A DNA stretch of 64,000 nucleotides from Candidatus Falkowbacteria bacterium (lineage in GTDB: Bacteria; Patescibacteriota; Patescibacteriia; CAIXNZ01): contig CAVZGV010000004.1 in assembly GCA_963774955.1 (NCBI GenBank), positions 195,522 to 259,521 on the forward strand. The letters run 5' to 3'. The notes beneath the pieces were generated by a model. That model was not told the origin of the DNA. It was given only the letters and a program-made list of their open reading frames with translations, and did no database searches. The translations under genes and the position numbers were made by a program. Shown piece by piece: positions 11,475 through 27,580 of this stretch. Each line of letters opens with the position of its first letter. Within the stretch, counting starts at the first letter, position 1.

Positions 11475-12032
11475 ATGCTGGAAAACTTATTCTCAAGCCA
11501 AGTAATTTTTAAGCTTTTGAGCCTGATGTTTAGCCAGGAAGAACAGGAATTTTCAACTCCGGAACTGGTTAAATTAACCGGTAAAAAACAGACCAATATC
11601 ATGCGTGAGCTGGAAAAATTGGCTAATTGGGACATGGTGATTAAAACTAAAAAGGGCAAGCAGAATTTTTATCGGCTTAACACCAAATACGCTTTTTATG
11701 AGCAGTTAAAAAGTCTGTTTTTAAGATATTTAGGTGCCAACAAAAAGTTTATGGTTTACACGGAGGAAGCCAATGCCGCTTTGCTCACGCTTAATTATTT
11801 TTCTATTGCCTATGCCAATCCCCTGGCTGTTAATTTGGGCATTTTGAGTCAGATGCCAGATTTGCTTTCATATTACAAAAATAATTATGTGCGTTTTTAT
11901 TTTGAAAAAGACGTGGTAGAAAAAATTACTGCTGAATCATTAAAGAAGCTGAGAACTGATGCCAGCTTTGTTAAAGATATTATTTACCAGCAATCAATTG
12001 CCAAAGGCGAAGAAGCTTTGAGTTTTATTTAA
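11475..12032 (+). CDS. Winged-helix transcription-regulator-like protein
   Basis: 'STPELVKLTGKKQTNIMRELEKLANWDMVIKTKKGKQNFYRL' winged HTH. 185 aa. Confidence 0.4.
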   Translation: MLENLFSSQVIFKLLSLMFSQEEQEFSTPELVKLTGKKQTNIMRELEKLANWDMVIKTKKGKQNFYRLNTKYAFYEQLKSLFLRYLGANKKFMVYTEEANAALLTLNYFSIAYANPLAVNLGILSQMPDLLSYYKNNYVRFYFEKDVVEKITAESLKKLRTDASFVKDIIYQQSIAKGEEALSFI

Positions 12033-12035
12033 CAA

Positions 12036-13208
12036 ATGAAGGCCAACGATTATAAAGTTACAGCCGCAGAAGCTTTAAAGCTGCTGGATCAATTTACAGA
12101 TATTATTAATACCCAGATTTCCTTAAACTGCATCGCTATTTTAGATTTATTTAATGAGCCGTACAGCAATTATTTAAAAACCTATTTACAGAAGCAGATC
12201 AAAGAGACTGATTTACGCCTGAATTATGTACTGGAAAAATTACTAGCGCCTGAGCAGCTGACCTGGACCCAGCTTTACCGCCGTGAAATGATCAAGCTGG
12301 TTTTAAAGTATAAAGCAGAAAAGATTGACTATAAGCCTGAACTGCAAACCATTCATGCCAATTGGAAATGGCTGAACTTCAATTACCGCGGACCGGAATA
12401 TACTCTGGAATATTTTGCACAGATATTTAATGAAATGATAAATAAGGCTTTGTCTGAGCTGGAAATAGAGCTGGATTTTATTGATAATAATCAGACTTAC
12501 GTCCTCAAAGAAAAAAACAAAATTTTTAAAGAGCTGAAAATCGACCAGCAACACCAGGATTACATCAATGCTTTGAGCATCCTCTCGTATTTGAAAGTCT
12601 ATCGTAAAGATACGGCTTTTTTATTGGTTTTTCTAACTCTTAAAATCATGGAACAGTTTGCGGACGGTTTGAAAAAGGAAAACTGGCTTTATTTGACTCA
12701 GTCTGAGGCGCGCGATCTGATCAAGGGGCAGTTAAATGTTACTAAAGCTCAGCTGATTGAAAGGGAAAAGGAATGCGCTTACCTCGGTCAGGAAAAGATA
12801 TTAATGGTAGGTCACGACGCCGCCAAATTCGTGGCTGATAATACCATAGCGGATAAATTTAGCGAAGCCGGTGGTTTAAAACTCTTAGAAGGAACCACTG
12901 CTTGTTTGGGTAAAACCGGTGACTGGGTGTACGGCAAAGTAAAAATTATTAATCAGCCAGAAGATATGAGTAAAATGGAATACGGGGACATTTTGGTCTC
13001 TTATGCGACCATTCCTGATATTTTGCCAGCCATGAAAAAAGCCGCAGCCATTGTCACTGATCAGGGTGGTATTACTTCACATGCAGCCATTGTTTCCCGC
13101 GAATTAAATATTCCCTGCGTGATCGGCACCAAATATGCCACTAAAGTCTTTAAAGACGGAGACAAGGTGATTGTCTGTCCGCGTCATGGGCATATTAGAT
13201 TTCAATAA
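12036..13208 (+). CDS. Swivel-domain paralog 2 (helical N-terminal domain plus PEP-utilizing mobile domain)
   Basis: C-terminal 'DILVSYATIPDILPAMKKAAAIVTDQGGITSHAAIVSRELNIPCVIGT'. The 'W-x-W-L-N-F-N-Y-x-G-P' motif is shared with the other paralogs. Confidence 0.7.
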   Translation: MKANDYKVTAAEALKLLDQFTDIINTQISLNCIAILDLFNEPYSNYLKTYLQKQIKETDLRLNYVLEKLLAPEQLTWTQLYRREMIKLVLKYKAEKIDYKPELQTIHANWKWLNFNYRGPEYTLEYFAQIFNEMINKALSELEIELDFIDNNQTYVLKEKNKIFKELKIDQQHQDYINALSILSYLKVYRKDTAFLLVFLTLKIMEQFADGLKKENWLYLTQSEARDLIKGQLNVTKAQLIEREKECAYLGQEKILMVGHDAAKFVADNTIADKFSEAGGLKLLEGTTACLGKTGDWVYGKVKIINQPEDMSKMEYGDILVSYATIPDILPAMKKAAAIVTDQGGITSHAAIVSRELNIPCVIGTKYATKVFKDGDKVIVCPRHGHIRFQ

Positions 13209-13259: not shown

Positions 13260-14793
13260 ATGGCTTTAAGACAACAATTTGACCGCAAAAATATTTTAAT
13301 CTTCCCTTGGTATATTGCGGATTTGACCTTAACTAAGGATATTGCCGCCATTGCTGACGGCCAAAAAGTTAAGGATTGTTTGGTTATTATTGAAAATTAT
13401 TATTTTAAATATGCCATGGATGTGGACTCGGTCAAAGAGACTGCCCTGGCGATTTTAAATAAATTGGTCAGTGATCCTAAATATTTTGCTTTGGCTAAGA
13501 AGATGATTTATGATTTTGGCGAAGACTTGCTGGCCTTTGGTGACAAAATTAAGGATATTGATTTAGCTCAGGCCAGTAACGAAGATTTATTGAATATTTA
13601 TGCTGAATATACGGAACATTTGAAAGCCATGCGCACCTGGGGCTGGATCCCGGCCATTATTGATGGCACGACTGAAAGCTTTTTGACCGATACGATTATG
13701 GCTAAATTCGGCGCCTATTTAAAAATAATTAATCAGGAGGATAAAATTGCAGCTTTTTACAGCTTATTAAGCTCCAGTGAAAAAATGAGCGAAGTCCAGA
13801 CAGAGGAATTGGCCAGGCTGGATTTACTTTTTAAAATTTTAAAGGATAAGCAAACTGCGTCAAATACTTGATCTGATCAAGTCCAATAATTATCAAGAAA
13901 TAAAAACGCAATTTCCTAAAATATTATAAATTATTAGCTAAACATTTACAGGATTTTGCCTGGCTGCCTTTTGCTTATATTGGCCCGGTCATGTCCTGGG
14001 AATATTTATTTAAATTAATTAATGATAATTTAAACAGCGGGGATATTAAGGCTCAGAAAGAAAAAATCATCAATCATTACAAATCAATTAAAAAAGACAA
14101 AGCCGCTTTGATTAAGAAATTAAAATTGCCGGCTGATTTGCAGTATATTTTTCAGATTTCCACTGAATTCATGTTTATCAAAGATTACCGCAAGGGCATT
14201 TATCAGAAATCTTATGTTTATATGGATCCGGTCATGGCTGAAATCGCCAAAGACTTAAGTCTGAACTTTAAAGCAGGTCAAATTTTTAATTTATGAAGAT
14301 GTTGCTGATGCTTTATTGAATAATAAGGCGGATTTTTATCGTCAGACTGTGCCGAACAACGCCAAAAAAAATGTTGTTATTATGCGACTGACGGTGCAAT
14401 TAAAGTTTATCAGGGGGAAGAATGTGAACAAATGATTAGCTAAATATCTTAAGAGCAACACCGCAAGTTGACGTCAGCCACATTAAGGAATTAAAAGGCA
14501 TGACTGCTTACCCGGGTAAAGTTACTGGTACTGCCAAGATTGTCTTATTGGAAAAAGATGTCAGCAAAGTCCAGGCCGGTGATATTTTGGTTTCTTCGGC
14601 GACTAATCCTGATTTGATTGCGGCCATGAAAAGAGCTGCTGCCTTTGTGACTGATACGGGCGGTATAACTTGTCATGCGGCCATTGTCTCTCGTGAGTTG
14701 AAAAAGCCCTGTATTATTGGCACTCAGCATGCGACTAAGGTCATTAAGGATGGTGATCATGCTGGAAGTTGACGCTGACCATGGCATTGTCAA
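13260..14793 (+). pseudogene. Decayed swivel-domain paralog, broken into three frames (ORFs 13260-13871, 13991-14296 and 14500-14772)
   Basis: Family motifs appear in consecutive frames, including 'DFAWLPFAYIGPVMSWEY' upstream of the 13991 ORF with no start codon. The swivel domain ends 'KDGDHAGS*', while the +1 frame continues 'MLEVDADHGIVKILNK*'. This indicates a 1-nt indel near 14746. Confidence 0.55.
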
Positions 14794-14827
14794 AATTTTA
14801 AATAAATAATTAATTTAAGTAAAATTT

Positions 14828-15432
14828 ATGTCTATCTTAGAAATAAAAAATTTACCCGAGCAATATGAGGCGCTTTGGCAGCGCTGCGCGCCTTTATTAC
14901 AAAAAGGACGGCCAGATGACGAGGGCCATGCCAAAGATACAGTGGAATTTGTTTTAAATTATCAGGGCGATTTGCCGTTTGATCCGGAAGTCATTATTCC
15001 CGTGGCTATGATGCATGATATCGGCCATTCCGCGTTATTGCCAGAGCATTTAAAATACGTACTGGCGGCGTTAAAATAAAAAATGGCAAATTGGTTCACA
15101 TGCTGGCCGGCGCGAAAATTGCTCATGATTTATTGGTTGACAATTAAGCTATGATCACGGCCAATATCAAGGAAATCGTGGATATTATCAGTATTCATGA
15201 CTGGGATCAATTGGACATTCCTGAGGCAAAGACGGTTTATGATACTGATAATAAAAAGTTCTTTCATGATATTGATGCATTAGACCGCTTTAATCAGGAG
15301 CGTTTGGAATATTATAAAAATTCATTTCAGCAGGGTGAACTGCAGAAATTGATAACCAAGCAGTTGGATGTTTTCTTTTATCCGGAATTTAAAAAAATCG
15401 CCGAGGCGAGATTCAAAATTTTGAAGTTTTAA
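14828..15432 (+). pseudogene. HD-domain phosphohydrolase, interrupted by in-frame stops and a frameshift
   Basis: 'MMHDIGHS' HD motif in ORF 14828-15079. After the TAA, the same frame continues 'KNGKLVHMLAGAKIAHDLLVDN*'. A third piece (15151-15432) lies in another frame. Confidence 0.4.
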
Positions 15433-15436
15433 ATTT

Positions 15437-16880
15437 ATGATTAGCGATGTCTTAAAAAAATACAGCCAAGGGCGGAACTTAATGAAGCAAGAAGGCGCCT
15501 TCTCTTTATTAGCATCTTATGGTTTTTGCGCGCTCGGTTTATTTGGACCAAAGTGGTATGACCTTTACCGCAATGATTATAATTTTTTCTTGGGCATATT
15601 TGATCAGACGAATGGCCTTTTTGTTTTTGATTGGGGTAAATATAAGGAAACCACCGACATTGAATATCGTCTGATGATTAAAGAAGGTAAAGGTAGTTAT
15701 TTAAGAGTTTTACCTTTATTTGAGAAGCATTCTGCCGAGATGTTTAAACTCTATCAGGCCAATCATCCAGCAGTTATTGCTAAAATGGATATTGAAAAAT
15801 TAAGGCAACATATTATTAATTCAAATGAATTAACTTCAATTATATTAAGAGACACGCTGTTTAGCGAGTCTTTTGATGAAGATATGGCCAAAGTCTATTA
15901 TTTGCAGGCAGGCGGCCAGGAAGAATATTTCCAGGAATTTTTTGCCATGACCTCTGCGTTGACGTTTGATTCATTTAAATTTAGGAGAGATAAGATTATC
16001 TTAAATGATGCAAAACAAAAAAAGATTGATTATTATAAGTTGCAATACATATATACTGATCACTTTGCTGGCAAACTTTTAATTGAGGTTGAAAAAATGG
16101 TGAATAATTTGAATTTTAATATACTTTTGGAAGAGATAAAAATTAATGATCAACAGGTAGAGAATAATAAAGAAAGAAGGGAAAAATACATCCAAGCTTT
16201 ACCCGACAGTTTGAAAGCATTAGCTCATTTTATGGAAGTGACCATGCGCATCAGAGATGAAAGGCAAGATTGTTTTGCCCAAGGTATGACCATTGCATAT
16301 AACTGCGCTTATGAATACTTTAAGCGGCTAGGTTTTAATCCTAAAGATTGTATTTATTCTTTTTATACTGACTATTTGAATAATATTTTGGAAAACCCCG
16401 AATATTCACAACTGATTGAGAACAGAAAAAAGGGCTGTGCCGTGATTGCAGAAGCAGGCCAGCCAGTAAAATATACCTGGGAATTCAAGGAATATCAGCA
16501 AGTTACGCCAGGAATTTTTAGATATTGTTGAAGCTTCAGTTAAAAAAGAAAATTCCCTAGAGCAGATTAAAGGCCAGGTTGCTAATCCAGGCAAGATAAA
16601 GGGCATGGTTAAAATAGTTTTAAGCAGTACTGATTTTGCCAAATTTAATAAGGGTGATATTTTAGTCGCCTCTATGACCAGGCCAGAATATGTGCCAGTA
16701 ATGAAAAAGGCTAAAGCAATTATCACTGATGAAGGCGGTATCACCTGCCATGCCGCCATTGTCTCCCGGGAATTAAATATACCCTGCATAATTGGCACTA
16801 AAAATGCGACTAGAATTTTGCAAGATGGGGATGAAGTGGAAGTGGATGCCAATAATGGCACCATTAAGATAATTAAATAA
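15437..16880 (+). pseudogene. Swivel-domain paralog with a single frameshift at about 16490-16509. It could instead be an authentic frameshift or a sequencing error.
   Basis: ORF 15437-16531 carries the N-terminal family motifs ('RIRDERQD', 'RKKGCAVIAEAGQ'). Frame 0 is open from 16470 and reads 'RQEFLDIVEASVKKENSLEQIKGQVANPGKIKGMVKIVL', which continues into ORF 16605-16880, a complete swivel domain. Confidence 0.55.
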
Positions 16881-16886
16881 TATTTT

Positions 16887-18395
16887 ATGACTGAGACTAA
16901 AAATAATGTAACGAAATTAGACTGGCAGGAATACATCCGCAGCGGCGCCAATTATCATCTGATGCTGCCTTATGTTGACGGCATCACCCTTGGCGTTAAG
17001 GCAATATTCGGCCAGTCAATCAGCCATTTCATGGCCTTTTTTGAAGGCACGACATTATACTGGTACTATGTTGCCCAGGAATTAGCTGCTTTGGGCAGAG
17101 TTATTGTCGCCAAATTATTGGAGTCTGAGTTTAGAACTAATTTTTTTGCAGTCTGGAATAATTATAAAAATGAACTGGACAATTTGATTAATAAATTTCA
17201 GCTGGAACAAATTAAAAAATTATCTAACCAGGAACTGGCTGACCTTTATCGCGGCTATTTTAAGCAATTGACTGAGTGGTGCGGCTATAGCATGTCCATA
17301 GATGCCACGGATGAATCTTTAATGGCGGATATCCCCACCAGAATTAAAGCTATCATGAAAAATGTCTTGGCTGACGGTTATACAGAAAAGGAATATATCA
17401 GAGCGTATAATATTTTAACCCAGCCGGAAAAATTTTCCTACATGAACGAAGAACGGCTGGCATTATTACAGCTGGCTAAAGATTTACAGTCCGACACAAT
17501 TAAAAAGGACGATTTGGCCTATCAGCAGCAAGTTCAAGCCGTTTTGGATAAATATTGGTGGACTGATATGGGCTGGGCTAAAGGCCAACCAAAAACTAAA
17601 AGCGATGTGGCTAAAAGCTTGGAAGAAATTGTTAAGGCAGGTCAGGATCTTGACGAGGAAATTAAAAAGATTAAAGCTTTACCCGCCAAAATAAAAGCTG
17701 CTAAAGCTGAACTGGAAAAAACCTACCAGTTTAGTCAGGATCAAGATTTAATCCAATTACTGGATTTATTTGACCAGTTGGTTGAATATCATGATTTAAG
17801 GAAAGAAACGCAGATGAAAACTAATTACTGGCACTATCTGGTTTTTGCGGAGATTGCTCAAAGAAAAATGATTGAGCCGCAGCTTTTAGACTGGTGTAAT
17901 TTGGCTGAACTGGAAAGTTTATTAATCGGGAATGAATTTGATCGGGAGGAAATGAGCCGCCGCTCAGTTAATTACCTAAGATTAAATCTTGAGGGAGTTT
18001 TGAGCCTTTATGCCGGCGAAGAAGCCAAAGCCAGGCATGATGAGGTTTTAGGCTTGCAGTTGGAGCAGGTGCATGATTTGCAGGGTATTAGCGCTTCTGC
18101 CGGCAAAGTGGCCGGCCGCGCCCTGGTTGCCCTAAGCATTGAAGCAGCCAAAGATATTAAGCCGGGTGAAATTTTAGTGACTGGCATGACCACCCCGGAA
18201 TTTGTGCCGGCCATGAAGAAAGCCGCGGCCATTGTTACTGATGAAGGCGGGATTACCTGCCATGCGGCCATAATTTCACGAGAGCTGGGACTTCCCTGTG
18301 TGGTCGGCACCAAATTCGCCACCCGCCTGATTAAAACAGGTGATCTGATTGAAGTGGCAGCCAATCACGGTATTGTTAGATTATTAAATAAATAA
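16887..18395 (+). CDS. Swivel-domain paralog 5
   Basis: C-terminal 'GEILVTGMTTPEFVPAMKKAAAIVTDEGGITCHAAIISRELGLPCVVGT'. Begins 7 bp after the previous gene. Confidence 0.7.
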   Translation: MTETKNNVTKLDWQEYIRSGANYHLMLPYVDGITLGVKAIFGQSISHFMAFFEGTTLYWYYVAQELAALGRVIVAKLLESEFRTNFFAVWNNYKNELDNLINKFQLEQIKKLSNQELADLYRGYFKQLTEWCGYSMSIDATDESLMADIPTRIKAIMKNVLADGYTEKEYIRAYNILTQPEKFSYMNEERLALLQLAKDLQSDTIKKDDLAYQQQVQAVLDKYWWTDMGWAKGQPKTKSDVAKSLEEIVKAGQDLDEEIKKIKALPAKIKAAKAELEKTYQFSQDQDLIQLLDLFDQLVEYHDLRKETQMKTNYWHYLVFAEIAQRKMIEPQLLDWCNLAELESLLIGNEFDREEMSRRSVNYLRLNLEGVLSLYAGEEAKARHDEVLGLQLEQVHDLQGISASAGKVAGRALVALSIEAAKDIKPGEILVTGMTTPEFVPAMKKAAAIVTDEGGITCHAAIISRELGLPCVVGTKFATRLIKTGDLIEVAANHGIVRLLNK

Positions 18396-18400
18396 ATCAT

Positions 18401-19729
18401 ATGATCAATTTTAAAAAAGAAGATTTTTTCATGACTGGTTCGGCTCAGTCGGCTTTGATTTATAACTACATTTCAGCCTTGGGTTCTTTAAGCTCATTTG
18501 GCAAAGCTAATGGTGGGATATTATTGTATGAAAATAATGTTGTAACGTTTTATTTTTCTAAACAAGGTATTATTGATTTTAAAAATAAATTGATCAAGAA
18601 GAAAATCGAATATTTTGAAAAAAATTTTACACGCTGGCAGGCAAAATGGCGGAACAAAGAAGCGATTCTTTATAAATTAGCTACACAGGGTAAAAATTGG
18701 CGTAAGAACTGGCAGCGTTTAGACAAATTATGTTTTAAGTACTGGCATGATTCTTATTTTGTTGATACCTATGATCATTTTGCCGAAGAATTTGACCGGC
18801 AAATTATTAAATCTTTAAAAAAGGCCAGGCTTGATCCGGAATTGCGCAATGAATTAGTCTTACCTGACGTAGCGACTAAAGTTCAGGAAGTAGCGGTGCA
18901 ATTACAGGCAGTTAAAGACGGACAATTATCCAAATCAGAATTTTTGAGAAAGTATTGGTATAGCCATGGCTCCTGGAACGGGGGAGAAGTATTAACCAAA
19001 GAATTATTAGACAAAGATCTGGCCAGTATAGATATTGATCTGCATTTTACAATCAGGAAAAAGATCCACGAGGAAGTTGATCCCAAATTGGATAAAAAGA
19101 CCTTAAATTTGCTCAGAGTCCTAAGATTCTTTGCGCTTTGGCGTGATGAGCGTAAGGCCTTTTTGCAAATGATCAGCTTGGGTTTTCGTAAAGTCGCCTT
19201 AGCTGCAGCCAACGAATTAAACGTTGAATCCAAAGCAATTGAATTTGCTTTCCGCGATGAAATTGATGAAGTTTCACATAATCCTCAAAAATTTTTAGAA
19301 CGCAAGAATAGATCAGTTTTATTACTTCCCAATTCTCAGACTCACGGCCAAATTTTGGTTGGAGCCGAAGTAGAGCCGTATTTCCAGGAATTTATGGCCA
19401 CGACCGAAGTCCGGGAAATCAAGGGCATTGTGGCCTCACCGGGCAAAGTCCAGGGAATTGCCAATGTAATTTTACGTCAGCATCAGTTTTTTGAATTTAA
19501 TGAAGGCGATATTTTAGTCACTACCATGACCCGGCCGGAATTTATGCCTTTAATGAAGAAAGCTAGCGCTATCGTCACTGACGAAGGCGGACTGACTTGT
19601 CATGCAGCCATTGTTTCCCGGGAATTAAAAAAGCCCTGCATTGTGGGCACAAAAGATGGGACCAGGATTTTTAAAACAGGGGATAAAATAGAAGTTGATG
19701 CTAACTTGGGGGTGATTAAGAAAATTTAA
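18401..19729 (+). CDS. Swivel-domain paralog 6
   Basis: 'WRDERKAF' motif. C-terminal 'GDILVTTMTRPEFMPLMKKASAIVTDEGGLTCHAAIVSRELKKPCIVGT'. Confidence 0.7.
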   Translation: MINFKKEDFFMTGSAQSALIYNYISALGSLSSFGKANGGILLYENNVVTFYFSKQGIIDFKNKLIKKKIEYFEKNFTRWQAKWRNKEAILYKLATQGKNWRKNWQRLDKLCFKYWHDSYFVDTYDHFAEEFDRQIIKSLKKARLDPELRNELVLPDVATKVQEVAVQLQAVKDGQLSKSEFLRKYWYSHGSWNGGEVLTKELLDKDLASIDIDLHFTIRKKIHEEVDPKLDKKTLNLLRVLRFFALWRDERKAFLQMISLGFRKVALAAANELNVESKAIEFAFRDEIDEVSHNPQKFLERKNRSVLLLPNSQTHGQILVGAEVEPYFQEFMATTEVREIKGIVASPGKVQGIANVILRQHQFFEFNEGDILVTTMTRPEFMPLMKKASAIVTDEGGLTCHAAIVSRELKKPCIVGTKDGTRIFKTGDKIEVDANLGVIKKI

Positions 19730-19739
19730 GTACATAAGT

Positions 19740-21251
19740 ATGAATCCATTAGAGCGGATTAAACAATTTAAACCAGGCGATTGGTATCCGGAAAATACTC
19801 CCTCCCGGCCTTTAATGGTATCAGGTATTGCCAGAGGCTTTACTACCAATATTCTTAAAAACTATAAGCTGGTGCTCTGTTATTTTAGTCAGGGAAAAGT
19901 GTCCTGGATTACTTTGATTAAAGACCAGCAGGAAATAGGAGAACTGATTTGGCAAAAGCAAATGCAGGATAATAAGTATTGGCTTAACCAATTTGCGACT
20001 TATGAGCAGATTAGAAATAATCTGGCTCAAAATTTTGACTTACTTAAAAATAAGTATTTAAGAGAGTTAAGTGATAATCAGCTTGTTGAGGACATAAATA
20101 ATTACGTGACTCAGCAGTGGGCCACCAGAAAATATGATAGTTTGGTAGATCCTTATCTGTTTTATGCGGAAAATAAACTCCCTGAGTTATTGAGGCAATT
20201 TGTCCGGGCCAAGGCGGAAATTGCCTTAAAGCCCCAGGAAGCAATGGAAATTATTACCAAACCAGAAGTACCTTTCTTTTTAAACAAATACTTTTTAGAT
20301 TTGATCGATATTGCCAGGTCAATCAAAAGTGATCATGAGTTAGCAGCTAAAATTTTAGCTGAAGAAATCAAGGAAGCTGATTTACCCCAAGGTTTAATTG
20401 AGCGAATTAAAAAGCATGCAGACAAATATTGCTGGATTAAAGTGGAAAGTTTTTATGGTGCCAATGAGTATACTTTCAATCATATTATAAACGAATTGCA
20501 AAAATTGTTAGCGGCTGATTTAGAGGCAGAAGAAAATCAACATAAAGCCTGGCAGCATAATAAAAAAATAAGGCAGGAATTTTTGATTAAGCACAATTTT
20601 AGTGATGAGATTCGGGCGTTTGCGGATTTGGCGCCTGTATTTGCCAAATGGCAGGATTTAAGAAAGATTAATTCCGTTATGACCACCTATTTGCACGCCA
20701 AATATCTGCAGGAATTGAGTAGGCGGCTAGGTTTGACTGAAGATGAATTGGCTTACCATGATTTTCAGGAGCTAACCCAAATATTACAGGGTAAAATCGG
20801 GCAGGCTGAATTACAGAAAAGAAAAGAAGGCTGTCTGTTTGTCTTTCAGAATGACGGTTTTGAAATGTTTTATAAAGAAGATGTGCAGGATTTAATCAAT
20901 GACATTGTAAATCCGGATTTAAAGGGGATTACTGAATTCAGCGGCATGGTTGCCTCGACCGGCCAGACCCAGGGAACGGTTAAAATTGTCATTACAGTTG
21001 AGGATATGCAGAAAATGAACAAAGGCGATATCCTGGTTTCTACCATGACCAGGCCGGAACATTTACCGGCCATGAAAAAGGCTAGCGCCATAATTACCGA
21101 TGAAGGCGGCATTACCTGTCACGCGGCCATAATTTCCAGAGAATTAAACATTCCCTGCGTCATTGGCACTAAAATCGCCACTCATGTTTTAAAAGATGGC
21201 GATCAAGTAGAAGTTGACGCCAATCAAGGTATAGTTAAAATAATTAAATAA
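19740..21251 (+). CDS. Swivel-domain paralog 7
   Basis: 'WQDLRKIN' motif. C-terminal 'GDILVSTMTRPEHLPAMKKASAIITDEGGITCHAAIISRELNIPCVIGT'. Confidence 0.7.
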   Translation: MNPLERIKQFKPGDWYPENTPSRPLMVSGIARGFTTNILKNYKLVLCYFSQGKVSWITLIKDQQEIGELIWQKQMQDNKYWLNQFATYEQIRNNLAQNFDLLKNKYLRELSDNQLVEDINNYVTQQWATRKYDSLVDPYLFYAENKLPELLRQFVRAKAEIALKPQEAMEIITKPEVPFFLNKYFLDLIDIARSIKSDHELAAKILAEEIKEADLPQGLIERIKKHADKYCWIKVESFYGANEYTFNHIINELQKLLAADLEAEENQHKAWQHNKKIRQEFLIKHNFSDEIRAFADLAPVFAKWQDLRKINSVMTTYLHAKYLQELSRRLGLTEDELAYHDFQELTQILQGKIGQAELQKRKEGCLFVFQNDGFEMFYKEDVQDLINDIVNPDLKGITEFSGMVASTGQTQGTVKIVITVEDMQKMNKGDILVSTMTRPEHLPAMKKASAIITDEGGITCHAAIISRELNIPCVIGTKIATHVLKDGDQVEVDANQGIVKIIK

Positions 21252-21260
21252 ATTAGAAAT

Positions 21261-22715
21261 ATGTTAACATTTTCAGATTGGCAAAATATTTTAAACGAAG
21301 ATTGGTATATCCAGGGCTTTAATGCCGCTCCGATTTTTCTTAATACCGCAGCATATAGTGGTTTGATTATGAAAGACAAGGTGGGGTTTGGCTACACTCA
21401 TTTTTTGTTTCAATACCAAAAGAAATATGCGGAAATGGGTTACTTAAATGATGATTTTATGCGTCTATGGCAGATTATCAAGGAAAAATTGGCGGCTGAC
21501 TCCGATTATTTATCTAAAGTTAAAAAACAGTATGAAACTGAATTGGAGCAATATGAGCCTATTCATAAAAGATTGGAGCAGGAAGATTTAACAAAACTGG
21601 ATGATTCAGAAATCATTAAATTATTAAAAAGCTCTTGCCGGAATATGACTGATGCGGTTGGCATTGCGCATTTGATCGAGCCGATCGGCATTTTTTTGGA
21701 GCAGGAATTTAAAGCTGATTTAAAAAATTTTGTTCAGGAGGAAAAAGAATATAATCGCATTTTCGGCATATTGTCCACGCCGACCCAAAGTTCATTTTTA
21801 GCGCTTGAAGAACAGGAATTAAAAAACATTGCGGCTTTGAAATCTAATCAACAGGCTGCCGCACTGGCTGAACATGCCCGAAAGTATTTTTGGCTGAATA
21901 ACAGTTTTGCCGGGCCGCAGAACATTGATCCGGCGCAATTCAGTAAAAGATTGGCAGCCTTTAAAATGCAAAAAGTTGAAAATCCCTCAGTTTCAGCGGC
22001 TGAACAAAAGAGTGGCTTAATTAAGACTTTAAGGTTAGATCAGGCAATCATTAAAAAGATTGGAATTATTGATTACTGCACTATTTGGCAGGATGAACGC
22101 AAAATCAATGTGCTTAAAGCAATCGGATATTTAGGCAAAGTATTAGCTGAACTCGGACGACGTTTGAACATTGATCCTGTTAATCTTTATTTTTTGGCAA
22201 CTACTGATTTTTTAAATATTAAATCCATAGCCGAGTTAAAATCCTTAGAACCTGAATTGCTGGCTCGACAAGCTGGTTCATTCTTCCTGATTAACGGTCT
22301 AAACCAGGAAGAAGTCGCCAGGGGAAGTGATTATGAGAAATTAATCGATTATAAAAAGGAATTGGAAGTTACGCAAAGCTTTAAAGGTACTGATTTGCAC
22401 GGTTCTATTGCCAATGGCGGCACAGCGATCGGCATTGTAAAAGTTTGCAAAAACTTAAGCCAAATTCACAAAGTTCAGCCAGGAGATATTTTAGTTGCTT
22501 CCATGACGCGTCCCGAATATATTCAGGCAATTAAAAAGGCTGCGGCCATTATAACTGATGAGGGCGGCATTACCTGTCATGCAGCCATTGTGTCCCGGGA
22601 ATTAAATATCCCGGCCGTTATTGGTACCAAAATCGCCACCAAAGTTTTAAAAGACGGCATGAAAGTCGAAGTCAAAGCCAATCACGGCTTGGTCAGAATT
22701 TTAGAAAATATTTAA
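21261..22715 (+). CDS. Swivel-domain paralog 8
   Basis: 'WQDERKIN' motif. C-terminal 'GDILVASMTRPEYIQAIKKAAAIITDEGGITCHAAIVSRELNIPAVIGT'. Confidence 0.7.
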   Translation: MLTFSDWQNILNEDWYIQGFNAAPIFLNTAAYSGLIMKDKVGFGYTHFLFQYQKKYAEMGYLNDDFMRLWQIIKEKLAADSDYLSKVKKQYETELEQYEPIHKRLEQEDLTKLDDSEIIKLLKSSCRNMTDAVGIAHLIEPIGIFLEQEFKADLKNFVQEEKEYNRIFGILSTPTQSSFLALEEQELKNIAALKSNQQAAALAEHARKYFWLNNSFAGPQNIDPAQFSKRLAAFKMQKVENPSVSAAEQKSGLIKTLRLDQAIIKKIGIIDYCTIWQDERKINVLKAIGYLGKVLAELGRRLNIDPVNLYFLATTDFLNIKSIAELKSLEPELLARQAGSFFLINGLNQEEVARGSDYEKLIDYKKELEVTQSFKGTDLHGSIANGGTAIGIVKVCKNLSQIHKVQPGDILVASMTRPEYIQAIKKAAAIITDEGGITCHAAIVSRELNIPAVIGTKIATKVLKDGMKVEVKANHGLVRILENI

Positions 22716-22731
22716 ATAGTATATTAATATT

Positions 22732-24198
22732 ATGTTGACTCTCGATCAAGTTAAAAATATCAAATGGTATCGCCAGTCAGGGGCGGGGATTCCATTGAGC
22801 ATTGGCATGCCATTTTTGGGCATTGCCATCATGAATAAAGTTTCCGGTTTTTATTACCCCAATGATTTGGGTACTTTTTTGAAAACTGGCAAGGGTTTTA
22901 CTTTTTATCATTACTTTGATTATTTTTTGACCCTGGAACAGGTCAAGAAAATTTTTAAAACATTGGAACAAGATCCTGAGCATTTTAGCAAACTTAAGGG
23001 GAAATTTTATCAGGCCGGACCTAAAATGGAAGCCGAGGGTTTAGCGATTCTCGATAAGTCAGTATTTTCTCACGAGTTCCAGCAGGGTTATCAAAAGACA
23101 TATGATTACACTATGGATTTTTGGGGTAATTCACTTTACGTTGACCTGATGGATCCTTTTGAGATTCAGGTCATTGATTTTATTTTTGGTGACATCAAAA
23201 AGAAAATAAACAAAGCAGAATTAAATATTTTAATGAGTCCGGATGAATTGTCCAATTACCAGAAGCAGCAAGCTGAGCTTTTGGAACTGCTTAAAGTCGC
23301 CCAGGCAAAAGGGATTGATAGCAGCGAGGTCTTAACAGGTGCAAAAGAATTATCCCGTAGATATTACTGGCTCAAAAATGATTATGAAAAAGTGGAATTT
23401 CTTGATGCCGATTATTTTATGAATGAAATCAAGAAATTGTTGGTAGATCCCAAGGAAGCTGATAATATCAGCAGAAATCTGCAGAAAAGTCGTGAGTTAC
23501 AGATTGAGAAGCAGACAATTATTAAAAAATATAATTTTTCGGAGATATTGGTTAATCATCTGAATTTTTTCAACTGGGTGACGATCTTGCGAGATGACCG
23601 CAAAAAATATAACCAGATCAGCAATTATATTCTGATTAAAACCATTGAAAAAATTTCTGAGGAAGCAGGAATTGATCTTGAGCTTTTAAAATATGCCATG
23701 CCCAATGAAATAATTAAAATAATTAATAAGGATGCTAAAATCGCGACTGAACTGGAGCAAAGAGCCAATTTGGGCTTAATCGTGTTTGCCGATACCATTG
23801 AAGTGCTGGAAGTTTACTCTGGTAAAATCGCCAAAGAATATTTTGACATCATTGAAAGTACTATTGCTGCCTCGGAAATTAAAGGTACGACTGCTTCACC
23901 CGGTAAAGTTATCGGCACAGCCAAAATTATTTTAAGTCAGCATGATTTTGATAAAATGAAGCCAGGCGATATTATTGTCGCTTCCATGACCAGGCCGGAA
24001 TATGTGCCGATTATGAAAATTGCTCTGGCGATTGTAACTGATGAAGGAGGGATTACTTCGCACGCAGCTATTGTTTCGCGGGAATTAAATATACCCTGCA
24101 TTACTGGAACCCAGGTAGCAACGAGGTCTTTACAAGACGGAGATTTAATTGATGTTAATGCCGATCATGGTTTAGTAAAAATAGTTAAGAAAGCGTAG
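22732..24198 (+). CDS. Swivel-domain paralog 9
   Basis: 'LRDDRKKY' motif. C-terminal 'GDIIVASMTRPEYVPIMKIALAIVTDEGGITSHAAIVSRELNIPCITGT'. Confidence 0.7.
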   Translation: MLTLDQVKNIKWYRQSGAGIPLSIGMPFLGIAIMNKVSGFYYPNDLGTFLKTGKGFTFYHYFDYFLTLEQVKKIFKTLEQDPEHFSKLKGKFYQAGPKMEAEGLAILDKSVFSHEFQQGYQKTYDYTMDFWGNSLYVDLMDPFEIQVIDFIFGDIKKKINKAELNILMSPDELSNYQKQQAELLELLKVAQAKGIDSSEVLTGAKELSRRYYWLKNDYEKVEFLDADYFMNEIKKLLVDPKEADNISRNLQKSRELQIEKQTIIKKYNFSEILVNHLNFFNWVTILRDDRKKYNQISNYILIKTIEKISEEAGIDLELLKYAMPNEIIKIINKDAKIATELEQRANLGLIVFADTIEVLEVYSGKIAKEYFDIIESTIAASEIKGTTASPGKVIGTAKIILSQHDFDKMKPGDIIVASMTRPEYVPIMKIALAIVTDEGGITSHAAIVSRELNIPCITGTQVATRSLQDGDLIDVNADHGLVKIVKKA

Positions 24199-24264: not shown

Positions 24265-25170
24265 ATGTTTAAAAACAGCTTGGAGCTTGGTCCTGATTCC
24301 GTCAATAAATTAACTAAGAAAAAAGAACGCTACGAAAATGCCAGTTCAGTAATTGAGCTTAATTTTTTTCGCCATGGCGACAAGGAAAGCGATAAAAGTA
24401 AGTCTGATTTGGAGATTGAACTGACCAAGGCGGGCGGCAAAGAAGCAGCGGCCAAAAGTAAAACTAAAAGCATTGAGCAGTCTTTGGCTTTGGGCAGCGC
24501 CAGAAACAGGGCTCAACAGACCGCCGGTTTGGTCATGGCCGGGCGCTCTGAGCGCATTACCGGCGAGGAAAGCTTAGCCGAACTCAAAATAAAACTTGAT
24601 CAAGAATTGAAAGTCGGCTCTAAAATCGGCATTGATAAGCGCTTGGATTTTATCATGGACATGAACAGACCCTATGACCAGGAGCTGATGGTGGCTTTTA
24701 AAAAAGGTGAATTTTTACCATTTTTATTTAATGATAGCGATCAACTAGCTAAAGCAGAGGACCTAAAAGAGGGCATGACTTATTCAGGCACGGCCAGTGA
24801 AATTGCCAAGATCGTAGCCAAATATCTAAAAATTGCGCCGCGCTGGGACCAATTGGTTGCTGATGACAAAAAGAAATACTCCAAAATTATGGAAAGATAT
24901 CTGGGCAGCCATCAGGGTGTGGTTGAAACGTTTTTAGCCAAAGTGATTGAAAAGACTAAAGGTGTAGAAGAAAGAAACAACTTTCAGGCAGTCTTAAATA
25001 ATCAGGGCTTTGGCTTTGTCGAAGGCTATCAGGTACAGATCATCAATAAAGCAGGGGAAAAACCGAAAGTATATATTTCGTATAAAAAAGAAAAAGACGG
25101 CCAAACAGTTTACCAATTTAACCAGGAAATAGAGTCACGAATTTTAGAGCAAATTATCAAAGGCAAATAA
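24265..25170 (+). CDS. Histidine-phosphatase superfamily protein (PGAM/SixA-like)
   Basis: 'FFRHGDKES' (RHG catalytic motif), 'LTKAGGKEAAA', 'GSARNRAQQTA' and later 'GSHQG' (second His). Confidence 0.5.
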   Translation: MFKNSLELGPDSVNKLTKKKERYENASSVIELNFFRHGDKESDKSKSDLEIELTKAGGKEAAAKSKTKSIEQSLALGSARNRAQQTAGLVMAGRSERITGEESLAELKIKLDQELKVGSKIGIDKRLDFIMDMNRPYDQELMVAFKKGEFLPFLFNDSDQLAKAEDLKEGMTYSGTASEIAKIVAKYLKIAPRWDQLVADDKKKYSKIMERYLGSHQGVVETFLAKVIEKTKGVEERNNFQAVLNNQGFGFVEGYQVQIINKAGEKPKVYISYKKEKDGQTVYQFNQEIESRILEQIIKGK

Positions 25171-25219: not shown

Positions 25220-25771
25220 TTAGTCCGAGGCAATTACCGCCCTGATATTGCCCTCATCGTCCTGGATGAAGTCAACATACTCAAGCGGTTGCAGACTTCT
25301 GCCGGTGGCATCGCAGGCCATGGCGCAAAGGGAAATGATCGGGTCATGGCCGATAGCCAGACCATAGCCATCATCCGGCATTTGAGCGAACATTTTGATC
25401 AGACCGGATATGGCCCAGTCGCGGATGGGCTTGCGCTCCTCTTCCGTTTCAAAGGCAATCATGAAGGTGGCTAAACCATCATGGCCTTGGGCCGCAGCAT
25501 TTTTCCAGGCCGGGGTGGACAGAGTTTTGAACATTTCCTCATTGCCCAGTTCGGCCACGGCTTCATGCACGCGAATCTCGTAGCCGGTCCGCTGTTTGTG
25601 GCAGTGGCTGGCCAGCGCTGCCAATAGGGTTTGAGCGGTCCTGGCCCAGTCACTGTAAAACAGATCAGTGACATTGGTCAGGTCCACCTGTTTCCCGGCC
25701 TGCTGCAATCCAGCAGCACTGATGTTTTGGCCATTCTTGTCTCCATGCCGCATGTACCTGATTTTCTTCAT
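25220..25771 (-). CDS. Histidine-phosphatase superfamily protein (PGAM/SixA-like). The gene is compositionally G+C-rich.
   Basis: 'IRYMRHGDKNG', 'ISAAGLQQAG', 'SDWARTAQT', 'AIGHDPI'. It is markedly G+C-richer than its neighbours. Confidence 0.55.
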   Translation of the reverse strand: MKKIRYMRHGDKNGQNISAAGLQQAGKQVDLTNVTDLFYSDWARTAQTLLAALASHCHKQRTGYEIRVHEAVAELGNEEMFKTLSTPAWKNAAAQGHDGLATFMIAFETEEERKPIRDWAISGLIKMFAQMPDDGYGLAIGHDPIISLCAMACDATGRSLQPLEYVDFIQDDEGNIRAVIASD

Positions 25772-25889
25772 TTTTCCTCCGTATTTTGTCTTGTTTTTTG
25801 GCTAACCTCTGCGTGATTACTAATATAGTAGCTTATCATATTTTGAAAATAAAGTCAAGAGTAAATCACCTTTATTTTTAGGCTGATTT

Positions 25890-26567
25890 TTGCTATATTT
25901 AAGCTATTATAAGATACTAATTAAGCTCCTAGTTAAAATGATTATGTTAGACAAAGAATCAGGGTTAAACAGAGAAAAGGCGCCTGAATTTAAAAAAGTT
26001 GTCCAGGAATATAAGACATTATCGATTGCTTATGAATTGGCAATCAAGCCTTGCTTTATCTTTGGTGAAATATCAGATGCCTTGGATATTGCCCAGGTTT
26101 ATCAGATTATAAATTTGCAGTTTAAAGATAAAACAACTGGTAAAATCATAAAAATTGCTGACTTGGTTCCGGCTGGCTTTAAACTGGGACTGGTTAAGGG
26201 GAGCGGAGCAAGATTTATCAGGCAGAAGAAATTAATAACCGTGCCTAGCCTCGGCGAACCGGGTAATCAATTTGTTTTGTTGCATGAGATTGGTCATGCT
26301 CATCAAAAAAGAAAAGAGGAAGATAATTTTCATAAGCTAAATACCAAAGACGGCGAATTGGATATTTTAAATCATCTTTCAGATCAGGAATTTAGAAAAG
26401 AATGGCCGTTTGAAGAACAGGCGGATAAATTTGCTGCCGAAAAATTATTAGAAATACGCAGGCAAGGTCTTGACCTGGAGCCGGAAAAGCCCGGTCAGAT
26501 ATTAGAAGATTACATGAAAGAAAGATTAGACCGCTTAAAACATCTTATGTCACTTTGTGAAAAATAA
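25890..26567 (+). CDS. Putative HExxH zinc-metallopeptidase-like protein (ImmA/IrrE-like motif)
   Basis: 'FVLLHEIGHAHQKRKEED'. The exact start is uncertain because there are several in-frame ATGs. Confidence 0.35.
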   Translation: MLYLSYYKILIKLLVKMIMLDKESGLNREKAPEFKKVVQEYKTLSIAYELAIKPCFIFGEISDALDIAQVYQIINLQFKDKTTGKIIKIADLVPAGFKLGLVKGSGARFIRQKKLITVPSLGEPGNQFVLLHEIGHAHQKRKEEDNFHKLNTKDGELDILNHLSDQEFRKEWPFEEQADKFAAEKLLEIRRQGLDLEPEKPGQILEDYMKERLDRLKHLMSLCEK

Positions 26568-26583
26568 TTAAAATTATAAATTT

Positions 26584-27540
26584 ATGTCTGAATTAATCAA
26601 AATTTTCACAGAACTTAATAAAAACAGCACTCATTTAGCCGGAGGTAAAGGCGCGTCTTTGGGCGAGATGACCCAGGCAGGGATTCCGGTACCGCCTGGT
26701 TTTGTGGTTACGGCCAAAACCTTTGACCGTTTTCTGGCAGAAACTGATTTGACCCAGGAAGTAGAAGCCCAATTGGATAAGGTTAATTATGATGATGTAG
26801 CCTCTGTAGAAGAAGCTTCCAAGACAATTGCCGATTTGATCCATGATGCCAAGTTTCCGGAAGATTTGGAAATTGAAATTATGGCGGAATTTAAAAAATT
26901 AGATGTGGAATTTGTGGCAGTCCGTTCGTCAGCTACGGCCGAAGATTCTTCAGTGGCTTCCTGGGCAGGTGAGCTGGAAAGTTATCTGAATACTGATAAA
27001 AATCATTTATTGGGCAATGTTAAAAGATGTTGGGCTTCCTTATTTACCCCGCGAGCTATTGTTTATCGCATGGAAAAGGGTATGCGCGAAACAAAAGTAT
27101 CTGTTGCCGTGGTAATTCAGGCCATGGTGCAGTCAGATATTTCCGGTATTTGCTTTACAGTCCATCCGGTAACCAAAGATAAGAATCAGCTGATCATTGA
27201 GGCGGGATATGGTTTGGGTGAGGCTATTGTTTCCGGCCAGGTTACGCCTGATTCTTATGTTATCCATAAGGATGATCTGGAAATTATAGATATTAATATC
27301 GCCGACCAGGAAAGAAAAATTATGCGCAAACCAGAAGGCGGTAATCACTGGGTTGTGATTGATGCCGCAGACAGGGCTAAGCAAAAATTAGCTGGCGAGC
27401 AGATTATTGAATTAACTAAAATTTGTCTCAACATTGAAAAGCATTATGGTTTCCCCTGTGATATTGAATGGGTCATGACCAAAAAGTTAAATGAGTGGGA
27501 GTTCTTCATCGTGCAGTCACGGCCGATCACTACTTTATAA
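26584..27540 (+). CDS. Stand-alone PPDK_N-type ATP-grasp nucleotide-binding domain (the N-terminal domain of PEP synthase / pyruvate,water dikinase / rifampin phosphotransferase). It has no swivel or PEP-binding domains.
   Basis: 'LAGGKGASLGEMTQAGIPVPPGFVVTAKTF', 'VAVRSSATAEDSSVASWAGELESYLN', 'VAVVIQAMVQSDISGICFTVHP', 'LIIEAGYGLGEAIVSGQVTPDSYV'. It ends at 318 aa, followed by a terminator. Confidence 0.75.
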   Translation: MSELIKIFTELNKNSTHLAGGKGASLGEMTQAGIPVPPGFVVTAKTFDRFLAETDLTQEVEAQLDKVNYDDVASVEEASKTIADLIHDAKFPEDLEIEIMAEFKKLDVEFVAVRSSATAEDSSVASWAGELESYLNTDKNHLLGNVKRCWASLFTPRAIVYRMEKGMRETKVSVAVVIQAMVQSDISGICFTVHPVTKDKNQLIIEAGYGLGEAIVSGQVTPDSYVIHKDDLEIIDINIADQERKIMRKPEGGNHWVVIDAADRAKQKLAGEQIIELTKICLNIEKHYGFPCDIEWVMTKKLNEWEFFIVQSRPITTL

Positions 27541-27580
27541 AAAAAGCCCCGGACAAGAAATTGTCCGGGGCTTTTTATTT
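27541..27580. terminator. Bidirectional intrinsic terminator
   Basis: 'aaaaaagCCCCGGACAAgaaaTTGTCCGGGGctttttatttt' between two convergent genes. Confidence 0.6.

Follow-up and report, generated by a model that had tools for sequence, protein, structure and literature searches.

A stand-alone ATP-grasp protein beside nine RPH-like swivel modules in a Patescibacterium: a probable split small-molecule dikinase

Results and Discussion

The gene located at positions 26584..27540 (+) of the window (i.e., the whole stretch of 64,000 nucleotides that was analysed) encodes a stand-alone ATP-grasp (PPDK_N) subunit, which is probably the ATP-binding component of a split small-molecule dikinase of the RPH type, with one head serving a row of nine modules. 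This reading relies on the domain content, the intact catalytic motifs, the folds, the conserved linkage, and the gene fusion, as shown by the analysis. By analogy with characterised enzymes, phosphorylation would occur in trans, the single head would be common to many modules, and the substrates would be small molecules.

The ATP-grasp subunit

The product of 318 aa covers positions 3-311 of the 328 of the Pfam PPDK_N model (E 2.2e-99); no second domain was detected with Pfam, and its C-terminus is ...FFIVQSRPITTL, immediately followed by the stop codon. The comparison with PDB sequences retrieved PEP synthase (8a8e, E 1.4e-72), HpeI (9goj, E 5.7e-55), and the ATP-grasp-only construct of RPH (5hv6, E 1.3e-62); the product and this construct end at the same residue, i.e., the protein stops cleanly at the boundary of the RPH ATP-grasp domain. 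It is known that in RPH-Lm the handling of ATP and Mg2+ involves K22, R117, T136, and E297, as established by mutagenesis or structure (PMC4844700). In the alignment, these residues correspond to K22, R114, S133 (a conservative replacement), and E295, so that no key residue is missing, and the same four nucleotide-binding residues, considered for PEP synthase membership, are all there. The whole-protein NCBIfam models are matched below their cut-offs, with scores of 342 for NF005057 (PEP synthase; cut-off 598), 336 for TIGR01418 (cut-off 740), and 297, far short of the cut-off of 999, for the RPH model NF041857.

The preliminary description of this region had proposed that the truncation belongs to the gene itself, and the homologues from other CPR genomes bear this out. 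The stop codon occurs right after RPITTL in 15 of the 17 Patescibacteria ATP-grasp loci, and the best 120 of about 8000 homologues are all 304-375 aa long and contain PPDK_N alone. On the basis of this shared end and of the lack of other domains in the best relatives, the early stop is, on comparative grounds, ancestral, and the gene is predicted to encode a complete, free-standing ATP-binding subunit, not a broken PEP synthase. The interruption of other genes of the cluster might suggest that this ORF, too, has decayed, and that it was once part of a longer, complete PpsA or RPH gene; however, the domain is full-length, its active site is intact, and a terminator lies directly after the stop codon. 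A degraded fragment is ruled out for all practical purposes by the retained residues, the shared position of the stop, and the abundance of homologues of equal length (64-93% identity).

The terminator, which the same description had called strong and bidirectional, was indeed found at positions 27541..27576 (either strand). It is an intrinsic terminator with a 16-bp stem including eight G-C pairs, preceded by an A-run and trailed by a T-run, whose folding energy is -28.4 kcal/mol (z = -8.4 in respect to shuffled sequences), and it separates the convergent ATP-grasp and PBP1 (27580-30477, -) genes.

The array of partner modules

Nine PEP-utilizers (swivel His) domains are located in the 17 kb upstream of the ATP-grasp gene, all of them inside positions 9680-24198 and none elsewhere in the window; they belong to nine paralogs, six intact and three interrupted. 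Paralog 1 (9680..11353, +; 557 aa) is composed of a Cro/C1-type HTH (HTH_26, E 2.5e-13), an RPH-like substrate domain, and a swivel His domain (PEP-utilizers, E 6.5e-24), and its ortholog lies immediately upstream of the ATP-grasp gene in an Uhrbacteria locus (L014). The three interrupted genes follow: paralog 2 (11475..13208, +) has a winged-HTH-like N-terminus, a substrate domain, and a swivel, with an in-frame TAA at 12030-12032; paralog 3 (13260..14772, +) harbors several frameshifts, owing either to gene decay or to a faulty assembly; and in paralog 4 (15437..16880, +), a frameshift separates the substrate domain (15437-16531) from the swivel (16605-16880). A substrate domain followed by a swivel is also found in paralog 5 (16887..18395, +; 502 aa; PEP-utilizers, E 2.9e-25) and paralog 6 (18401..19729, +; 442 aa; E 1.5e-26), both with an ortholog in locus L001, in paralog 7 (19740..21251, +; 503 aa; E 8.9e-26), and in paralog 8 (21261..22715, +; 484 aa; E 3.5e-24). 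The last one, paralog 9 (22732..24198, +; 488 aa), joins, in its AF2 model, an RPH rifampin-binding-like domain to a swivel whose catalytic residue is His444.

The AF2 model of paralog 9 (pLDDT 92.5, pTM 0.91) was compared with the PDB using Foldseek, and the top matches were the RPH structures 5fbu/5fbt, with an alignment of about 567 columns (E 1e-12, TMq 0.58). Among PDB structures, only RPH can be superposed on the entire model; for PPDK, enzyme I, and pyruvate kinase, the similarity is confined to the swivel domain (TMq about 0.2). On the basis of this model, the divergent N-terminal domain of the paralogs is confidently predicted to adopt the rifampin-binding fold of RPH. The identity between the partner substrate domain and RPH is about 15%, too low for a reliable mapping of the rifampin-contacting residues; when the partner family is aligned to RPH as a profile, the match spans residues 622-866, R666 and E667 included, and a conserved partner motif, (R/Q/H)-D-x-R-K, is aligned with these two residues, which are essential for the second phosphotransfer of RPH (PMC4844700).

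The catalytic His is invariant in all the paralogs, within the motif GGIT[C/S]H, and the position -2 from it is occupied in all cases by Thr, not by Met. The longer motif GGIT[CS]HAAI[VI]SR corresponds to the PEP-synthase consensus (GGxT[S/C]HAA[IV][IV][AS]R), and the swivel domain matches PEP synthase 8a8e with E 3e-26. Among themselves, the paralogs share 48-61% identity in the swivel and 20-26% in the substrate domains, a pattern that fits a common docking partner and different substrates. Since the substrate domains are anciently divergent in comparison with the similar swivels, and since several of the paralogs are individually represented by orthologues in other Patescibacteria genomes, one head would serve several different substrates.

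The preliminary description had taken the canonical PpsA as its reference, and this frame has to be abandoned: no PEP/pyruvate TIM-barrel was found in the ORFs scanned, and the large domain of the paralogs is predicted to have the fold of RPH. [quoted passage not shown] It is nevertheless highly improbable because no PEP/pyruvate domain was found, PEP-utilizers_C being absent from the ORF, from its nine partners, and from the other large ORFs scanned in the 64-kb window. Moreover, the whole-protein score of the ATP-grasp subunit is well below the PEP synthase cut-off, the large domain of the partners is foreign to PEP synthase (PMC12167813), and a single reaction needs no nine different modules.

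Conservation of the linkage and transcriptional organization

The Patescibacteria comparison set included 14 related loci from a genome scan and three further distinct loci that were looked up. His-domain genes adjoin the ATP-grasp gene in 11 of the former and in all three of the latter, with a number of partners ranging from one to seven, and in loci L013 and L014, the ATP-grasp domain and a partner-type module form one ORF; these fusions support a functional link between head and modules. The earlier proposal that the upstream paralogs supply the His domains is thus upheld by the nine swivel domains of the array, by the linkage conserved elsewhere, and by the two fused relatives. In L004-L006, no partner gene was found in the available sequence. 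No neighbouring pathway gene is consistent across the loci examined, so that the context gives no clue to the substrates, and these arrays were not found described in the Patescibacteria/CPR literature on PEP-utilizing or dikinase proteins (PF00391, PF01326).

The array and the ATP-grasp gene are transcribed separately, the latter having its own promoter-like region and two other genes lying between them. This region contains a promoter-like or leader segment, tttgctatatttaagctatta (25887..25909, +), shared with L001, a syntenic, 93%-identical locus, in which the segment of the tttgctatatttaagctatta type is placed about 30 nt before the ATP-grasp start and abuts the gene directly, with no HExxH gene between; it may represent a promoter.

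In the window, the intervening gene codes for an HExxH protein. The listed ORF starts with a TTG at 25890; an ATG at 25938, giving a product of 209 aa (25938..26567, +), is the more likely start because the TTG is embedded in the promoter-like stretch conserved with L001. The HExxH stop and the ATP-grasp start are separated by 16 nt, and the two genes are probably co-transcribed.

The HExxH protein

The HExxH protein contains the motif HEIGH and, about 35 residues on, E-x-x-A-D-x-F-A, both conserved within its small family. Its profile matches are weak and M78-like (phrog_87 metallo-protease and PADLOC capP, both E 2.8e-6; Pfam Peptidase_M78, E 0.0027, with a score of 17.9 and a gathering threshold of 22). 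The AF2 model (pLDDT 82) comprises an N-terminal beta-rich domain and helices, and the fold search gave no significant PDB match. The likeness to ImmA, IrrE, and CapP (MEROPS M78) thus concerns the two motifs, the phrog_87/CapP matches, and the presence of an XRE-type HTH in the cluster; the differences concern the sub-threshold Pfam score, the predicted fold without a PDB counterpart, and the position of the HTH. No XRE-type HTH gene is adjacent to the HExxH gene, which is flanked by a histidine-phosphatase-like gene on one side and by the ATP-grasp gene on the other; the only such HTH belongs to paralog 1, 14.5 kb upstream, where it is fused to a dikinase module and does not form a small repressor encoded next to the peptidase-like gene. 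A defence system was also considered and discarded: PADLOC matched neither the ATP-grasp protein nor any of the paralogs, the weak CapP-like match of the HExxH protein being its sole result.

The family is extremely rare, with 12 matches among 1.84 billion representative proteins; a word-index homologue search returned the query alone, and a metagenome scan with the narrow alignment of the family retrieved a single, already known contig. In three of seven contexts, its members lie in dikinase-type clusters, and in the other four, no dikinase gene is nearby. The preliminary description had paired the ATP-grasp protein with the HExxH protein; this is correct for this genome, where 16 nt separate the two genes, and does not hold for the system in general: none of the 17 other Patescibacteria ATP-grasp loci examined, syntenic L001 included, has the HExxH gene. 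A tblastn search with seven family members against L001-L023 detected the family in four loci only, L016-L019, all of them fetched via HExxH relatives. In L022, the ATP-grasp gene is preceded by an ORF of 208 aa, which was evaluated as a candidate and is unrelated.

It might be argued that the HExxH and ATP-grasp genes form a dedicated two-gene unit, e.g., with a peptidase processing or activating the head or its partners. Their proximity, the common promoter-like region and terminator, and two homologues would agree with this: a 36%-identical one on an unrelated contig is placed as in the window, preceded by three PEP-utilizers genes and followed by PPDK_N, and a 43%-identical one lies between two swivel-domain genes. 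Such a unit appears improbable, however, in the light of the absence of the gene from the 17 loci, of the four contexts without dikinase genes, of the rarity of the family, and of a peptidase assignment consisting of short motif-level matches with no fold match. Judging from its distribution and motifs, the HExxH gene is a rare accessory with M78/ImmA-IrrE-like motifs, not a regular partner, and its product might possibly act in regulatory proteolysis.

Histidine-phosphatase-like neighbours and a possible signalling role

Two genes with an RHG motif are located between the array and the HExxH/ATP-grasp pair. The first one (24265..25170, +), 66 nt downstream of the array, encodes a protein of the histidine-phosphatase superfamily (His_Phos_1, E 3.7e-5; weak SixA/CobC matches), and its L001 counterpart, in the same place, is 80% identical. 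The second one (25220..25771, -; 183 aa), divergent from the pair, has no database family match and an outlier GC content of 0.54, and its L001 counterpart is 56% identical. Except for syntenic L001, the phosphatase genes were not found at the other loci examined.

These neighbours raise the possibility of signalling instead of catalysis: the swivel proteins would be sensors or regulators whose phosphorylation on His, carried out by the ATP-grasp protein and undone by the proteins of the histidine-phosphatase family, reports a ligand in a PTS-like manner, without bulk phosphorylation of metabolites. The HTH_26 of paralog 1 and the winged-HTH-like N-terminus of paralog 2 are in agreement with this idea, as are the HTH-fused form kept beside the ATP-grasp gene in a distant lineage (L014), the two RHG-motif genes (one with a weak match to SixA, a phosphohistidine phosphatase), the "regulatory" Thr of PEP synthase retained in the swivel domains, and the M78/ImmA-like protein, members of this class usually cleaving XRE-type repressors. 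Yet seven of the nine modules lack a DNA-binding or output domain, the motif aligned to RPH R666/E667, i.e., to residues for phosphotransfer to the substrate, is conserved, and, among the loci examined, the phosphatase genes are restricted to this one and L001. In addition, the characterised relatives are all enzymes (PMC12167813, PMC4844700). A purely signalling role therefore appears rather unlikely.

Comparison with known dikinases and proposed mechanism

The dikinases HpeHI of Rhodococcus, CreHI of Corynebacterium, and the phenylphosphate synthase PpsAB of Thauera/Aromatoleum need both of their components, HpeI being the ATP-grasp part and HpeH the substrate and swivel part; the mutation of the conserved His abolishes the kinase activity of a two-component dikinase, the pairwise identity in the HpeH/CreH/PpsA clade is about 45%, and HpeH, its homologues, and RPH have Met at -2 from the catalytic His (PMC12167813). 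By analogy, the system of the window is most likely a two-component small-molecule dikinase of this kind. As in those enzymes, the ATP-grasp domain forms a polypeptide of its own, of about 35-40 kDa, and the partner combines an RPH-like domain with a C-terminal swivel His, the genes being adjacent; thus, among the features of two-component dikinases, the lone PPDK_N polypeptide, the RPH-like plus swivel partner, and the co-located genes were found, whereas membership in the PRK08296 clade and Met at -2 were not. The PRK08296 (HpeH/PpsA-like) NCBIfam models match only the last 110 residues or so of the partners (60-101 bits, cut-offs 578-730); since nothing outside the swivel is matched, the partners are not close relatives of the characterised two-component enzymes. 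Further differences are that the known systems are 1:1 pairs, whereas here one head lies beside nine modules; that the HpeH-type partners are about 640 aa long and those of the window 442-557 aa; that the window swivels have Thr (PEP-synthase type) instead of Met at -2, one module being HTH-fused; and that the host is a reduced-genome Patescibacterium and not an aromatic degrader.

With RPH from Listeria (5FBS/5FBT/5FBU/5HV1/5HV6), the system has in common the same three modules and folds, with the ATP-grasp domain aligned end to end; however, RPH is one polypeptide, while the window head is separate, and fused only in the relatives L013 and L014. No support was found for rifamycins as the substrate. 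PpsA and PPDK are the closest sequence matches of the ATP-grasp and swivel domains; in contrast to them, the window system has separate polypeptides, no PEP/pyruvate TIM-barrel, and partners in which the substrate domain precedes the swivel.

According to the split-dikinase reading, which takes RPH and HpeHI as its models, ATP would be bound by the ATP-grasp protein. The C-terminal swivel of a partner would then dock on the head, where its catalytic His (GGIT[C/S]H) would accept the beta-phosphate, with AMP and Pi leaving; the swivel would swing back to the RPH-like substrate-binding domain at the N-terminus of the same partner, and there a hydroxyl-bearing small molecule, positioned by the (R/Q/H)-D-x-R-K motif, would be phosphorylated. 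The HTH-fused paralog 1 may couple phosphotransfer to transcription. Counting against the dikinase reading are the Thr at -2, the restriction of the PRK08296 matches to the swivel, the separate transcription of the head, the three interrupted modules, and the partnerless loci L004-L006. Since the analysis covered 64 kb of the genome, further ATP-grasp genes or a PEP-binding domain may also be encoded elsewhere.

A more speculative version ("one head, many hands"), which we regard as doubtful though worth considering, would make the free ATP-grasp protein the common phosphoryl donor for the diverged substrate modules and for the HTH-fused one, i.e., an ATP-driven counterpart of the PTS that traps or activates, and senses, scavenged host metabolites, the M78-like peptidase and the histidine-phosphatase proteins acting as modulators.

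Conclusions

For thousands of such Patescibacteria proteins, the annotation is "pyruvate, water dikinase" or "PEP/pyruvate-binding domain protein", and reading them as PEP synthase would wrongly introduce the interconversion of PEP and pyruvate into metabolic reconstructions; additional domain checks were already required for PEP synthase matches by Jaffe et al. 2020. In respect to the known two-component dikinases, the difference is represented by one head with many substrate modules, by swivel motifs of the PEP-synthase type, and by the HTH-fused member. To our knowledge, nine paralogs of anything are rarely kept by reduced-genome symbionts. The two-component dikinase subfamily, recently defined, is extended beyond aromatic catabolism, and its natural split and fused pairs are material for studying how a swivel recognizes its ATP-grasp partner in trans. 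Most likely, by analogy, a split-kinase design known from a few aromatic-degrading bacteria has been expanded here in CPR/Patescibacteria, and a conserved array of divergent modules with one ATP head points to an important small-molecule phosphorylation capacity, which could serve scavenging, activation, or detoxification.

The ATP-Grasp Gene

The ORF at 26584-27540 (+ strand) encodes a protein of 318 aa, ending with FFIVQSRPITTL*, whose one Pfam domain is PPDK_N (E 2.2e-99, model positions 3-311 of 328). Its stop codon is immediately followed by a 16-bp hairpin (27541-27576; folding energy -28.4 kcal/mol, z = -8.4) with an A-run on the 5' side and a T-run on the 3' side, located between this gene and the convergent gene of a class A penicillin-binding protein (27580-30477). 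The elements of the preliminary description, i.e., the stand-alone ATP-grasp ORF, the terminator, the HExxH neighbour, and the upstream His domains, were all found in place. The window itself belongs to a Patescibacteria/Parcubacteria genome, and MAGs of this kind are also the source of the closest homologues.

A short ORF of this kind might be a degraded fragment lacking ATP-grasp residues. Among solved structures, PEP synthase (8a8e, E 1.4e-72), RPH, the rifampin phosphotransferase of Listeria (about E 4e-62 for 5fbs/5hv1), and HpeI (9goj, E 5.7e-55) have ATP-grasp domains that align with the 318-aa protein over its entire length; the last residue of this protein coincides with the end of 5hv6, the crystallised ATP-grasp-only RPH construct. 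The RPH residues K22, R117, T136, and E297, probed by Stogios et al. and handling ATP polyphosphate and Mg2+ (PMC4844700), correspond in the alignment to K22, R114, S133, and E295, so that none of them is missing. Moreover, about 8000 homologues were found, the best 120 of which, almost all from Patescibacteria, are 304-375 aa long and contain PPDK_N only, and the stop directly follows RPITTL in 15 out of 17 Patescibacteria loci. The fragment hypothesis is therefore excluded and the truncation belongs to the gene itself, as originally proposed; the gene is intact and has never been longer than now.

In one related locus (L004), the ATP-grasp C-terminus occurs twice: about 500 nt beyond the intact gene, 27 of its residues are found again (11463-11543, 70% identity), probably as a gene remnant. 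The MAGs harboring L004, L007, and L012 are titled 'uncultured Gammaproteobacteria' and encode ATP-grasp proteins 67-79% identical to the Patescibacteria-type protein of the window; they are probably taxonomically mislabelled bins.

The Array of Swivel-Domain Paralogs

A tblastn search with the swivel domain disclosed nine copies, all embedded in the region 9680-24198 on the same strand and head-to-tail, and none elsewhere in the window. Six of the nine ORFs are intact (442-557 aa), with a spacing of 5-16 nt among the last five array members. The other three, interrupted by an in-frame TAA (12030-12032) in one case and by frameshifts (13871-14500; 16531-16605) in two, may be pseudogenes or metagenome assembly errors. 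At the C-terminus, every paralog matches PEP-utilizers (E 1e-24 to 1e-26) and has the motif GGIT[C/S]HAAI[VI]SRE, which is invariant; no Pfam family was found for the N-terminal 340-450 residues. The swivel domains share 48-61% identity between paralogs, whereas the N-terminal domains share just 20-26%. Orthologues of paralog 9 (22732-24198) exist in other Patescibacteria, with identities from 84% down to 32%, and those of paralogs 1, 5, 6, and 9 are recognisable in the syntenic locus L001 or in the Uhrbacteria locus L014; the paralogs are old lineages.

Paralog 1 (9680-11353) also possesses an N-terminal Cro/C1 HTH (HTH_26, E 2.5e-13), an architecture kept in L014 (8313-9983), directly upstream of the ATP-grasp gene. 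Parcubacteria and Uhrbacteria have in common this Cro/C1 HTH fused to a dikinase module, which may be a transcription factor that is controlled by phosphorylation or senses a ligand. In two loci that differ in other respects (window 8365-9531; L022 14727-15899), a gene for a GT4 glycosyltransferase lies at the edge of the dikinase array.

The structure of paralog 9 was modelled with AlphaFold2 from 20 family sequences (mean pLDDT 92.5, pTM 0.91). The Foldseek comparison with the PDB placed six RPH entries at the top (E 1e-12 to 4e-10, query TM-score up to 0.58, 560-580 alignment columns), followed by PPDK, enzyme I, and pyruvate kinase, matching via the swivel domain only (TM about 0.2). When aligned as a sequence profile, the family covers RPH 622-866 and so extends into the rifampin-binding domain by about 140 residues; its conserved (R/Q/H)-D-x-R-K motif falls on R666/E667, whose change to Ala abolishes the second phosphotransfer (PMC4844700). 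By fold match and profile alignment, the paralogs are therefore equivalent to the rifampin-binding plus swivel domains of RPH, and the ATP-grasp domain that they lack is represented by the 318-aa protein.

Linkage of Head and Modules

Of 14 related Patescibacteria loci from a genome scan, 11 have 1-7 swivel-domain genes in the flanks of the ATP-grasp gene ("head"); three more distinct loci, retrieved through exact-protein look-ups, harbor one head each, preceded or followed by 1, 3, and 4 swivel-domain genes. In L013 (10001-12085) and L014 (10001-12016), no stop codon separates the ATP-grasp frame from a short module of the partner family plus swivel (hhalign probability 99.9), giving proteins of 694 and 671 aa. 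That the two are fused in nature is an argument for joint action of the separate head and module proteins.

In L001, the order of the window is maintained, with six upstream modules, two histidine-phosphatase-like genes, and then the ATP-grasp gene (93% identical). In the window, the two histidine-phosphatase-like genes (24265-25170, + strand; 25220-25771, - strand) separate the array from the HExxH gene; they encode RHG-motif proteins of the histidine phosphatase superfamily, which may act on phosphorylated products or on phospho-His, and did not recur at the other loci. The ORF at 25220-25771 has a GC content of 0.54 (0.33-0.44 around it) and shares 56% identity with its L001 counterpart, vs. 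80-97% for the flanking genes; it may be a recent replacement or horizontal acquisition. A dnaN gene with all three beta-clamp domains is located at 1559-2719, and the window therefore probably starts close to the replication origin.

The HExxH Protein

The HExxH ORF (25890-26567, + strand; motif HEIGH) stops 16 nt before the ATP-grasp start. Its listed TTG start falls within tttgctatatttaagctatta, the same sequence found about 30 nt before the ATP-grasp ATG in L001; the gene thus occupies the ATP-grasp leader in this genome and is absent from the closest relative (L001), and the ATG at 25938 is the likelier start. HEIGH is followed about 35 residues on by E-x-x-A-D-x-F-A, both kept in the small family. 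Weak M78-type metallopeptidase profile matches were obtained (phrog_87 and PADLOC CapP, 2.8e-6; Pfam M78 under threshold), and the model (pLDDT 82) had no significant fold match in the PDB.

The family is very rare: an exhaustive search of 1.84 billion representatives yielded 12 proteins, a word-index search of 5.8 billion proteins retrieved only the query, and a metagenome scan gave one, already known, contig. Three of seven family contexts, the window included, lie inside dikinase clusters. One homologue (36% identity) is on a contig with three PEP-utilizers genes, HExxH, PPDK_N, and SecG in this order, and another (43%) has a swivel-domain C-terminus on one side and a stand-alone swivel protein of 119 aa on the other; in the remaining four contexts, no dikinase gene is nearby. 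The 119-aa protein (L016, 971-1330) is a PEP-utilizers domain with the TCH motif and without any substrate domain. The family is absent from all 17 other Patescibacteria ATP-grasp loci. The pairing previously pointed out is thus real and recurs above chance placement, yet as an occasional accessory outside the core system rather than a general partnership, which the initial interpretation overstated.

Comparison with Known Dikinases

PEP-utilizers_C was not found in the ATP-grasp ORF, in its partners, or in the other large ORFs scanned in the window, and the curated PEP synthase equivalog scores are well below cut-off; PEP synthase identity was thus rejected. The autonomy of the ATP-grasp protein and the supply of His domains in trans by the nine upstream paralogs can be retained from the initial interpretation, but not the choice of PpsA as comparator, the partner fold being that of RPH. 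For CPR genomes, hits to PEP synthase HMMs have been noted to call for additional domain checks (Jaffe et al. 2020).

Characterised split dikinases are phenylphosphate synthase PpsAB, CreHI, and HpeHI, the last being known in most detail; each needs both of its components. In HpeHI, the ATP-grasp is contributed by HpeI (PDB 9GOJ); HpeH is modelled as an RPH-like substrate domain plus swivel and, once its conserved His is replaced, kinase activity is lost (PMC12167813). The window shares with them the separation of the ATP-grasp from a substrate-plus-swivel partner, and its system would work in the same way. However, NCBIfam HpeH/PpsA-like models match the partners in the swivel domain only and far under cut-off, so that these are not close members of that clade, from which the HTH-fused paralog 1 also sets the system apart. 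At -2 from the catalytic His, the window paralogs have Thr, like PEP synthase, PPDK, and enzyme I, in which it is a regulatory phosphorylation site, whereas RPH, HpeH, and the HpeH homologues have Met (PMC12167813). For the ATP-grasp and the swivel domains of the window alike, PEP synthase is a better-scoring match than RPH or HpeI. Lastly, there are nine modules per head, vs. one in HpeHI-type systems. No description of such Patescibacteria arrays was found in the searchable literature.

The most likely mechanism, which we consider fairly probable, is that of a split dikinase of the RPH/HpeHI type, in which several substrate-specific modules would each be phosphorylated on their swivel His by one ATP-grasp head; for this system, we infer the trans-phosphorylation, the common use of the head, and the kind of substrate.
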